Below are positions 22,208 to 23,338 of a DNA stretch of 42,991 nt, piece by piece. The stretch lies in the sequence record ON556632.1; one strand, 5' to 3'. Numbering within the stretch: position 1 is the first letter of the stretch; every line of letters starts with the position of its first letter. The notes below the pieces were generated by a model. It made no database searches and was not told the DNA's origin. It saw nothing but the letters and a program-made list of their open reading frames with translations. A program made the translations under genes and the position numbers. Source of the DNA: Escherichia phage hz69.

Positions 22208-23338
22208 ATGGCCCGGAAGAAAATAACCGACGAACAGTTGCAGGAAGAATTGAACGCCGGGATGAAGAATATAGATATAGCCCGTAAATACGGCATCTCA
22301 GACCGCGTAATTCGTATACGTAAAGCGAAACTGGCTAAGAAAGGCGTAGGTCACGGGCGCGACGTCAGCCACCTTGTGCCAGACGGCTACAAGATTAAAG
22401 GGACGTCGTCACTTGTTGACGAGTTCGGCAATACTAAACTGCAATGGGTTAAGACTGACACCGATGCCGAACGTCAGGTCGAGTTGATGAAAGCCGTAAT
22501 TGAAGGTATGAAGTCGGAGATTACCCCCGTTGCTCCTGTTAAAGCCGTTCGCGCCAAACGGGACGACAAGCTACTCAACCTTTACACTGTGTCTGATTTC
22601 CATCTCGGTATGCTGGCCTGGGCCGACGAGAGTGGCGACGACTGGGATATGAAGATTGCAGAAGACCTGTTCTCCCGTTGGTTCGATGCGGCATTCCAGA
22701 AAGCACCGGATGCGGGGACTGGGGTTATTAACCTGCTGGGCGACTTCGCGCACTTCGATAGTCTGGTTGCCGTTACACCTGCAAGCGGTCACGCCCTTGA
22801 CGCCGACACCCGTTACCAGAAACTTGTCCGCTACATGATTCGCATGGTCCGCCGTGTTGTCGATATGGCGCTGGTTAAGCATAAAAATGTTCGCTTGCTT
22901 ATCGTGCAAGGGAATCACGACGAAAGTGGCATGATTTGGTTAGCTGAGATGTTCAGTACGCTATACGACAACGAGCCGCGTGTGTTCGTCGATACGTCGC
23001 CGGATGTTTACAAGATGGTGCAACACGGCAAAACGACGTTGTTCTTTCACCACGGGCATAAAGCACGCTTCGACGCTATCGAGCCTGTTATGATTGCCAA
23101 GTTCCGTAAAGCGTTCGGCGAGAGTGTTTACAGTTACGCCCATGTAGGCCACCTGCACCATCAGAAGATTGTAGAAAGCCGTAACATGATTGTTGAGCAA
23201 CACCGCACCTTAGCGGCTAAAGACGCCTACGCCTCCCGCGGCGGGTGGATGTCGGGGCGCAGTGCCAATGTAATTACTTATAGCGCCGAATATGGCGAGG
23301 TCGCACGTTTAACTATTTCACCGGAGATGCTGAGATGA
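22208..23338 (+). CDS. N-terminal HTH fused to calcineurin-like metallophosphoesterase (Mre11/SbcD-like motifs)
   Basis: HTH NIDIARKYGISDRVIRIRKAK; phosphoesterase motifs SDFHLG, LLGDFAHFD, VQGNHDESG, HHGH, HVGHLHH; RBS ACGAGGAA. Confidence 0.75.
   Translation: MARKKITDEQLQEELNAGMKNIDIARKYGISDRVIRIRKAKLAKKGVGHGRDVSHLVPDGYKIKGTSSLVDEFGNTKLQWVKTDTDAERQVELMKAVIEGMKSEITPVAPVKAVRAKRDDKLLNLYTVSDFHLGMLAWADESGDDWDMKIAEDLFSRWFDAAFQKAPDAGTGVINLLGDFAHFDSLVAVTPASGHALDADTRYQKLVRYMIRMVRRVVDMALVKHKNVRLLIVQGNHDESGMIWLAEMFSTLYDNEPRVFVDTSPDVYKMVQHGKTTLFFHHGHKARFDAIEPVMIAKFRKAFGESVYSYAHVGHLHHQKIVESRNMIVEQHRTLAAKDAYASRGGWMSGRSANVITYSAEYGEVARLTISPEMLR

Follow-up and report, generated by a model that had tools for sequence, protein, structure and literature searches.

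The T5 protein A1 and the mycobacteriophage A10ZJ24 protein Gp48 are phage enzymes with which the gene examined here can be compared. Among the pre-early factors of T5, A1 alone, a predicted metallo-phosphatase, is both necessary and sufficient to degrade host DNA; it has been likened to the nucleases of double-strand-break repair and to the proofreading subunits of polymerases, and it also affects RNA polymerase (bioRxiv 10.64898/2026.04.02.716235). Gp48 is an early-expressed, toxic metallophosphoesterase (MPE) with phosphodiesterase activity, which degrades linear, circular and genomic DNA, of host and plasmid alike, both in vivo and in vitro, and which is inactive when its motifs are mutated (PMC12287305). 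Here we analyzed an MPE gene with a fused N-terminal helix-turn-helix (HTH) domain at positions 22208-23338 (+) of Escherichia phage hz69 (ON556632.1), using the whole 42,991-nucleotide record as the window. The window represents a virulent siphophage of the Kagunavirus type (Guernseyvirinae), and its DNA is 91-93% identical to that of BASEL phages Bas70-76 and others.

Our preferred reading, to which we assign a probability of roughly 0.45, is that the gene encodes a two-metal, HTH-tethered DNA nuclease which serves in host-chromosome breakdown and/or end trimming and is expressed in coordination with the lysis genes. The protein would be an active two-metal (Mn2+/Mg2+-type) phosphodiesterase with an Mre11/DP1-like catalytic domain, which the N-terminal HTH would tether to DNA. 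It would act in phage DNA metabolism, most likely by degrading the host chromosome and/or removing DNA ends, and in many relatives its products would pass on to a PNKP-type 3'-phosphatase and to a nucleotide kinase, whose genes follow directly. In the window phage it would be made from the second gene of a self-contained cassette with an early-type promoter. Since the MPE leader carries a promoter-proximal dyad shared with the holin gene, expression is probably coordinated with the lysis genes. What the analysis itself shows is the architecture of the protein, selection on its catalytic residues, the class of its predicted fold, the synteny of the gene and the cis-elements around it. We infer DNA as the substrate, and a nuclease role in phage biology, by analogy with T5 A1 and Gp48.

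In the open reading frame (ORF) listing, the gene encodes 376 amino acids from an ATG start. The ribosome binding site GAGGAA (22197-22202) lies 5 nucleotides (nt) before the ATG, and the stop codon overlaps the start of the next gene, orf66, as ATGA. The initial annotation had recognized a full calcineurin-like motif set in the protein, and all five strings that it quoted are present: motif I within VSDFHLG (residues 127-133), motif II as GDFAHFD (residues 178-184), GNHD (residues 235-238), HHGH (residues 281-284) and GHLHH (residues 314-318). They follow the superfamily order DxH, GDxx(D/H), GNH(D/E), H and GHxH. In an alignment of 45 homologs with 33-49% identity, D130, H132, G178, D179, N236, H237, H282, G314 and H317 were invariant, and H182, D184, G235, D238, G283, H284 and H315 were at least 90% conserved. 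The five motifs were kept across 45-146 diverse homologs, and their invariance shows that they are no chance resemblances and that catalysis is under selection. The predicted structure showed the four-layer alpha/beta-beta/alpha sandwich of the calcineurin type. From the alignment and the predicted fold, the sandwich with motifs I-V spans codons 119-376 and the stop codon (22562-23338, +), and it includes a family-specific loop, VTPASGHALDAD, at residues 189-200.

The N-terminal 45 residues, also taken for an HTH in the initial annotation, form a three-helix domain of the sigma-70 region 4 / LuxR-GerE / Fis type (codons 1-45, 22208-22342, +), with helices at residues 8-16, 21-28 and 32-44 in the AlphaFold2 model. 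While the query protein alone matched GerE of Pfam only weakly (E=0.012), members of its family matched Sigma70_r4_2 (1.5e-9), GerE (2.4e-8) and HTH_8 (2.6e-7). The fused HTH is conserved family-wide, and it is the most variable part of the protein in the alignment. Between the HTH and the MPE domain, the alignment and the AlphaFold2 model delimit a linker module (codons 46-118, 22343-22561, +) that consists of a beta-hairpin (residues 61-85) and a helix (residues 87-103) and has the conserved residues G65, W80 and V81-K82; no fold could be assigned to it.

Because the Pfam Metallophos matches of the query stayed below the curated cut-offs (18.9 vs 21.5 bits and 21.5 vs 27 bits for the models PF00149 and PF12850), the superfamily assignment rests on the motifs and the predicted fold. 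PF00149 reached E<=0.01 in only 15 of the 45 family members, and the sub-cut-off scores reflect the sensitivity of the models rather than a defining biological feature. Searches of PDB sequences with the single protein and with the 45-sequence profile found nothing significant, the best MPE-related matches (Nuclease MPE 6nvo, SbcD and Mre11) having E values of about 0.5, and a search of NCBIfam with the protein gave no meaningful match. In the Foldseek comparison, the top PDB match was the cyclic nucleotide monophosphate (cNMP) phosphodiesterase Rv0805 (E=8.6e-8). As to whether the fold is SbcD-like or PPP-phosphatase-like, a question raised by the initial annotation, the PPP side can be set aside, as neither the signature of the lambda PP type (GDxHG / GDxVDRG / GNHE) nor the PPP fold was matched. 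As for the SbcD side, Mre11 and SbcD were among the best structural matches; their scores, like those of the PolD DP1 and polymerase B-subunit domains, were no better than those of MJ0936 or LpxH.

Over its full length the protein matches phrog_704, 'DNA repair exonuclease' (E=1.8e-166, 555 bits; query residues 4-375 against profile positions 2-389 of 390). Examples of this family are Bas73_0023, a protein of Raoultella phage RP180, f18SE gp20 and the T1-like 'DNA repair exonuclease'; these orthologs share the genomic slot and the HTH-MPE architecture of the window gene, and nothing substantive differs. GenBank relatives with 95-99% identity are named DNA repair exonuclease, metallophosphoesterase, calcineurin-like phosphoesterase, phosphatase or winged-HTH protein. 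The gene thus belongs, as an ortholog, to a family that is already catalogued and that is annotated widely. The name 'DNA repair exonuclease' is a label propagated by homology. The papers on HIDEN-SEQ, Metis, PUA-Cal-HAD, TLS re-annotation and anthracyclines contained nothing on the phrog_704 family. The RNA-seq paper on Kagunavirus K1B4 lists the ortholog as K1B4_044 without giving it a temporal class, and places the adjacent _045 with methylase and polymerase genes in a coarse scheme. The other 'exonuclease' of the window (4187-5449) was considered as a paralog and rejected, as it belongs to phrog_69 and is unrelated.

Homologs were found by tblastn in 2,039 phage records. The carriers include Guernseyvirinae, Drexlerviridae with Klebsiella weberviruses, phages of Vibrio, Campylobacter and Flavobacterium, N4-like Rhodovirinae, a Yersinia myovirus and the temperate Rhizobium phage 16-3. 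An exhaustive HMMER scan yielded 4,636 clusters at 50% identity, nearly all of 370-420 amino acids and with the same architecture. The MPE gene occupied the same slot in every close relative examined, with varying small genes on its flanks, and the family has been rated 'persistent' in Tunavirus (PMC13164509). In Guernseyvirinae, Drexlerviridae and others, the MPE gene is part of the persistent core. The initial annotation had assumed expression from a moron promoter, a view that the analysis did not support. An autonomous promoter and a terminator, as expected of a moron, do enclose the cassette that contains the gene. However, the other marks of a moron, namely sporadic presence in close relatives, foreign composition and a lysogeny-related function, were not found: the phage is virulent, the gene is core, and its GC content (0.51-0.53) is that of the genome, compared with 0.45 in the small flanking ORFs. 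Because the flanking genes vary among relatives and the MPE gene does not, the gene is not a moron. The strongest promoter lies before the preceding ORF (21760-21788), and it is the same element that heads the early-gene cluster.

To survey the gene neighborhoods, we clustered the neighbors of the MPE gene in 95 loci. A PNKP-type HAD 3'-phosphatase was encoded directly downstream in at least four divergent lineages, in which MPE identity ranged from 99% to 48%. A P-loop kinase (phrog_139, 'dNMP kinase', for deoxynucleoside monophosphate) accompanied the phosphatase in three lineages and occurred alone in a fourth. The HAD partner matched PF25109 and resembled the phosphatase domains of Pnkp1 (4xrp, 3.6e-6) and T4 PNK (1ltq, 3e-4). 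Lysis genes adjoined the MPE gene in 7 of 18 lineages, the T1-like phages included, and for Drexlerviridae the downstream phosphatase and the lysis-gene adjacency have both been reported independently. Other neighbors were dCTP deaminase/thymidylate synthase in N4-like phages and an HD hydrolase in 16-3, and recombination genes (NinB, Holliday-junction resolvase, EndoVII, Sak and SSB) were nearby in several contexts. In lambdoid-like contigs the MPE gene lay between nin-region genes and lysis genes, the position of Q in lambda, next to an unannotated gene for a 164-amino-acid protein that could be the Q-like antiterminator. As a separate observation, HNH homing endonuclease genes repeatedly adjoined the MPE gene in unrelated lineages (L007 (wast), L004 (Vibrio 92E46-1), L029, L040-L042, L068, NTEC3 and HSE2); an HNH insertion beside the MPE gene has likewise been noted in the literature for T1.

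It is possible, although unlikely, that the protein is a 2',3'-cyclic phosphodiesterase or a 3'-end-cleaning esterase that heals broken RNA or DNA together with the PNKP-type phosphatase and the kinase. By analogy with T4 Pnkp/Rnl1 and bacterial Pnkp, such a system would restore ligatable ends after the action of host anticodon nucleases or defence DNases. The phosphoesterase module of bacterial Pnkp (Clostridium thermocellum family) is a calcineurin-type MPE. The recurrent order of MPE and HAD-PNKP phosphatase genes, with or without the P-loop kinase, in these divergent lineages and in Drexlerviridae would fit end healing, as would the resemblance of the HAD partner to T4 PNK and to Pnkp1, which belongs to an RNA-repair system, and the polynucleotide kinase gene that follows the A1 homolog in a T5-like Vibrio phage. 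On the other hand, no ligase was seen in the neighborhoods examined, the kinase is a dNMP kinase according to PHROGs and has no detectable similarity to the kinase domain of T4 PNK, and a sequence-variable HTH would be unexpected in an RNA-end enzyme. Furthermore, unlike many of its close phrog_704 relatives, the window copy has no PNKP-type phosphatase and kinase genes downstream. The pair is also missing from many other phages that keep the MPE gene, so that in these the MPE must work alone.

The leader of the MPE gene was analyzed for cis-elements. The initial annotation had placed an operator dyad in this leader, and a conserved dyad is indeed present: the extended -10-like motif GTGGTTAAAT (22169-22178) abuts the dyad TAGGAcaaaTCCTA (22178-22191), both within 22169-22191 (+). 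The dyad was retained in all Kagunavirus loci whatever the upstream gene, and GTGGTTAAAT was conserved in the Kagunavirus loci that carry orf108, the gene upstream of the MPE gene in the window. Exact TAGGA-N4-TCCTA had two copies in the window, one in the MPE leader and one in the holin leader. Of 1000 shuffled sequences, 1 contained two or more exact copies; when one mismatch was tolerated, a pair of dyad sites was not unusual (16 of 100 shuffles). The second copy, TAGGAtaatTCCTA (39328-39315), is followed by ccc and GTGGTATCCT (39311-39302), together spanning 39302-39328 (-); it sits in the leader of the holin gene (38953-39261, -), where cccGTGGTATCCT follows the dyad. Both dyad sites were conserved in Bas73, and a related TAGGAtaaaTCCgA was found upstream of the holin gene in Jerseyvirus f18SE.

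As the dyad recurs exactly once more, at the holin gene, an operator-like element shared by the two leaders is plausible, and the dyad with its extended -10-like motif may define a late or lysis promoter class. Transcription would be predicted to begin shortly after 21788, after 22178 and, on the - strand, after 39302. In a lineage with 75% identity, the MPE leader has a perfect 9-bp inverted repeat that embraces a TGgTATATT extended -10. In a co-variation test, this dyad was not repeated near the lysis genes of that lineage. Two further observations concern the motif itself: a GTGGT(A/T)-type extended -10-like motif together with the exact dyad occurred in the window only in the holin and MPE leaders, and a motif that resembles it, CCGTGGTAT, stands before the MPE gene in the lineage with 75% identity (L054 and others). 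The perfect 14-bp palindrome CCTTTAttTAAAGG (22147-22160), which was present only in relatives carrying orf108, was rejected as an operator since it did not recur above chance, and the repeat GGACAAATCCT at 25562 was dismissed since it lies within a coding region and is not a dyad.

These elements bear on a quite unlikely alternative, namely that the protein is a bifunctional regulator which, through binding of its HTH to the TAGGA-N4-TCCTA dyads, would repress its own promoter and switch on or time the lysis cassette, with the enzymatic domain linking DNA status to late/lysis gene expression. The placement of the dyads would suit such a regulator, as the one in the MPE leader covers the start-site region and the one in the holin leader lies in the -35 region of a TGgTATCCT extended -10, and the inverted repeat around the extended -10 in the 75%-identity lineage has the classic layout of an operator. 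The confinement of the exact dyad to the MPE and holin leaders, its conservation in Bas73, the related motif at the Jerseyvirus holin gene, the adjacency to lysis genes and the lambda Q position in the lambdoid-like contigs point in the same direction. A variable HTH is what would be expected of a site-specific binder, the query weakly matches phrog_836 'late transcriptional activator', and T5 A1 modulates RNA polymerase too. However, nothing links the HTH of the MPE to the dyad, and the genome encodes other HTH proteins. The shuffle frequency of the one-mismatch sites and the group-specific dyad of the 75%-identity lineage, which is not repeated near its lysis genes, also speak against this regulator, and the 164-amino-acid protein of the lambdoid contigs could be the real Q-like factor. 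The invariant catalytic residues show that the enzyme function is primary.

Equally improbable in our judgment is an Mre11/SbcD-like nuclease that would process the ends of phage DNA in recombination-dependent replication or concatemer handling, with the HTH in place of Rad50. The 'DNA repair exonuclease' label, as propagated, goes back to this idea, which could draw on the structural matches to Mre11 and SbcD and on the recombination genes nearby in several contexts. However, Mre11/SbcD proteins, like PolD DP1 and the polymerase B-subunits, do not have the N-terminal HTH and hairpin-helix module of the window protein, and the capping domain of the Mre11/SbcD type is absent from the MPE model. 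No Rad50/SbcC-like ATPase was found among the 31 window ORFs of at least 150 amino acids or in the annotated Bas73 and f18SE genomes. Moreover, the genomes of these phages already have genes for a RecB/Cas4-like exonuclease (phrog_69) and for a Gp2.5-like annealing protein, and in the window the MPE gene lies outside the replication/recombination module. As for PolD DP1, its OB-fold is absent, the model showing only a beta-hairpin and a helix before the phosphodiesterase domain; no DP2 partner was found, the phage polymerase is of family A (phrog_17), and the T1-like carriers examined had no polymerase gene next to the MPE homolog. Finally, a cyclic (oligo)nucleotide phosphodiesterase that destroys immune messengers (CBASS, Pycsar, type III CRISPR or Thoeris), a role also suggested by the initial annotation, is very improbable: although Rv0805 was the top Foldseek match and the MPE fold can accommodate such substrates, this role has no specific support, and the fused DNA-binding domain, the core-gene status, the polynucleotide-end-processing neighbors and the lack of any PADLOC or anti-defence match for the protein speak against it.

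The MPE gene is the second of five + strand ORFs, in the order orf108, MPE gene, orf66, orf76 and orf40, which lie antisense within the tail-gene module, with a promoter on one side (21760-21788) and a GC-rich hairpin on the other (23897-23916). The cassette promoter, TTGCAC-N17-TACTAT (21760-21788, +), was identified by k-mer and alignment analysis and holds an embedded TATAAT and an internal dyad, AATAG-GGTA-CTATT. It belongs to a promoter element of about 30 nt, cTTGCACACCCCAATATAATAGGGTACTATTCA, which has three near-identical copies at 21759-21790 (+), 30656-30688 (+) and 42515-42548 (-), each about 35 nt upstream of a ribosome binding site and start codon. By synteny with Bas73, the copy at 42515-42548 heads the early small-gene cluster, and the copy at 30656-30688 heads a small + strand gene inside the head/lysis region. 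The position of the cassette promoter is conserved in Kagunavirus loci regardless of the first gene. A TTCACA-16-AATAAT site found in a promoter scan (21788-21815) overlaps it, and a promoter-like site on the - strand was noted at 21799-21771. Upstream, a repeat search found the dyad GTGTGC-N24-GCACAC (21721-21756), which was rejected as an operator since it is unique in the window and a single occurrence accords with chance expectation (84 of 100 shuffles); relatives retain its GTGTGC, placed 39 nt ahead of the -35.

The first cassette gene, orf108 (21817-22143, +), belongs to phrog_14165, of unknown function, and its product has a signal-peptide-like N-terminus, MRKLVLALGFMSFATFGSPCE... In other Kagunaviruses and Jerseyviruses this slot holds a protein of 59-72 amino acids annotated 'immunity to superinfection membrane protein', and the position may be a superinfection-exclusion slot. 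Downstream of the MPE gene, orf66 (23335-23535, +), which is ATGA-coupled to the MPE gene and has no PHROG match, orf76 (23525-23755, +) and orf40 (23770-23892, +) fill the slot where many close relatives have the genes for the HAD-PNKP phosphatase and the P-loop kinase. The product of orf76 looks like a remnant or a minimal domain because it matches just the C-terminal third of larger PHROGs (phrog_2452, positions 150-220 of 235; phrog_17613 'ATPase'). Since orf66 and orf76 replace the phosphatase/kinase pair of many relatives with 98-99% identity, the slot stands out as a recombination hotspot. The perfect hairpin AAGGCCCCaaaaGGGGCCTT (AAGGCCCC-aaaa-GGGGCCTT, 23897-23916), between the convergent cassette (+) and the major tail gene (-), is probably a bidirectional terminator, so that late transcription would have to restart for the tail-chaperone and tape-measure genes. 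Elsewhere in the window, residues 468-563 of the family-A DNA polymerase (ORF 6231-8504, 757 amino acids) matched phrog_93 'endonuclease' (E=1.9e-10), and the polymerase gene of f18SE is much longer, at 3,099 nt; the segment may be an inserted homing-endonuclease/intein-like element or a variable insertion.

Several observations weigh against a host-DNA nuclease. No biochemical or genetic data on any phrog_704 member were found in the literature, and the phosphatase/kinase partners are absent from the window. Temperate carriers (Rhizobium 16-3 and the lambdoid-like contigs) fit wholesale host-DNA destruction poorly, and a salvage role leaves the lysis-gene adjacency and the holin-shared dyad unexplained. 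The sequence link to A1 is asymmetric: with an A1-family hidden Markov model (HMM), the MPE family made up the top 40 of 40 matches among 1,715 ORFs (best E=0.005), over about 115 amino acids from motif II to motif III, whereas the MPE-family HMM did not detect A1 (E=3.9), and hhalign against the A1 family gave 28-29% probability over 20-31 columns, covering only the segment from motif III to 'WL'. In support of the nuclease stand the invariant motifs, the family-wide HTH, the wide distribution as a core gene, the recurrent phosphatase and kinase neighbors, the precedents of T5 A1 and Gp48 and the result with the A1-family HMM. In addition, T1-like phages with a member of the MPE family are subject to a defence that responds to the dNMPs released when host DNA is broken down. 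A wider proposal, that the HTH-MPE is the host-chromosome-degrading nuclease of T1-like, Jersey/Kaguna-like and many other siphophages and at the same time a dyad-binding autorepressor that times lysis, is decidedly doubtful as a whole. If true, it would couple DNA breakdown to lysis, make the MPE the functional counterpart of T5 A1 and trace to this enzyme the m6dAMP-type danger signals to which Metis and PUA-Cal-HAD respond in these phages.

The MPE is among the most widespread uncharacterized enzymes of tailed phages, occurring in about 2,000 sequenced phages and in metagenomic clusters that number in the thousands, and its carriers include therapy-relevant Escherichia, Klebsiella and Salmonella phages, in which it routinely bears the propagated 'DNA repair exonuclease' label. 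If it is a host-DNA nuclease, it would account for the triggering of dNMP-sensing defences by T1-like phages, and it would bear on the generalized-transduction risk of therapeutic phages. The cis-element shared with the holin gene offers an entry point to late/lysis regulation in Guernseyvirinae, and this dyad and the parallel with T5 A1 make the function of the MPE experimentally tractable.

Among the described systems, Gp48 of A10ZJ24 resembles the window protein as a phage-encoded calcineurin-type MPE with the five motifs. It differs in that it is much shorter, with motif I at residue 10 and hence without an N-terminal HTH and linker; Mycobacterium phages did not figure among the ten organism names that occurred most often in the tblastn matches. 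T5 A1 has motifs I-V in the same order as the MPE family, invariant in nine diverse A1 homologs, and both share the 'xNHDxxxSxWL' segment of motif III and a C-terminal (V/I)ITY...G. The structural neighbors reported for A1 are also those found for the window MPE. In contrast, A1 has 556 amino acids with about 290 unrelated N-terminal residues and without a demonstrated HTH, has HD in motif II in place of the GD of the MPE family, and is a pre-early protein essential for second-step DNA transfer, a T5-specific process. A1 belongs to phrog_1745 'DNA transfer protein' and the window MPE to phrog_704; the window MPE does not match phrog_1745, and A1 matches no PHROG but its own. The layout in T5-like phages, with A2 (a separate DNA-binding protein), A1 and a HAD phosphatase (Dmp or PNK), parallels the order of HTH-MPE and HAD phosphatase. 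In the T5-like phages L098 (Vibrio phage D332), L099 and L104, A2 was upstream of A1 and dmp downstream, a polynucleotide kinase gene standing in place of dmp after A1 in D332. The MPE family and T5 A1 fall within one superfamily, and the sequence similarity between them is weak but specific, which does not establish them as sisters; if the nuclease reading is correct, the T5 A1 / Gp48 paradigm would extend to a much larger group of phages.

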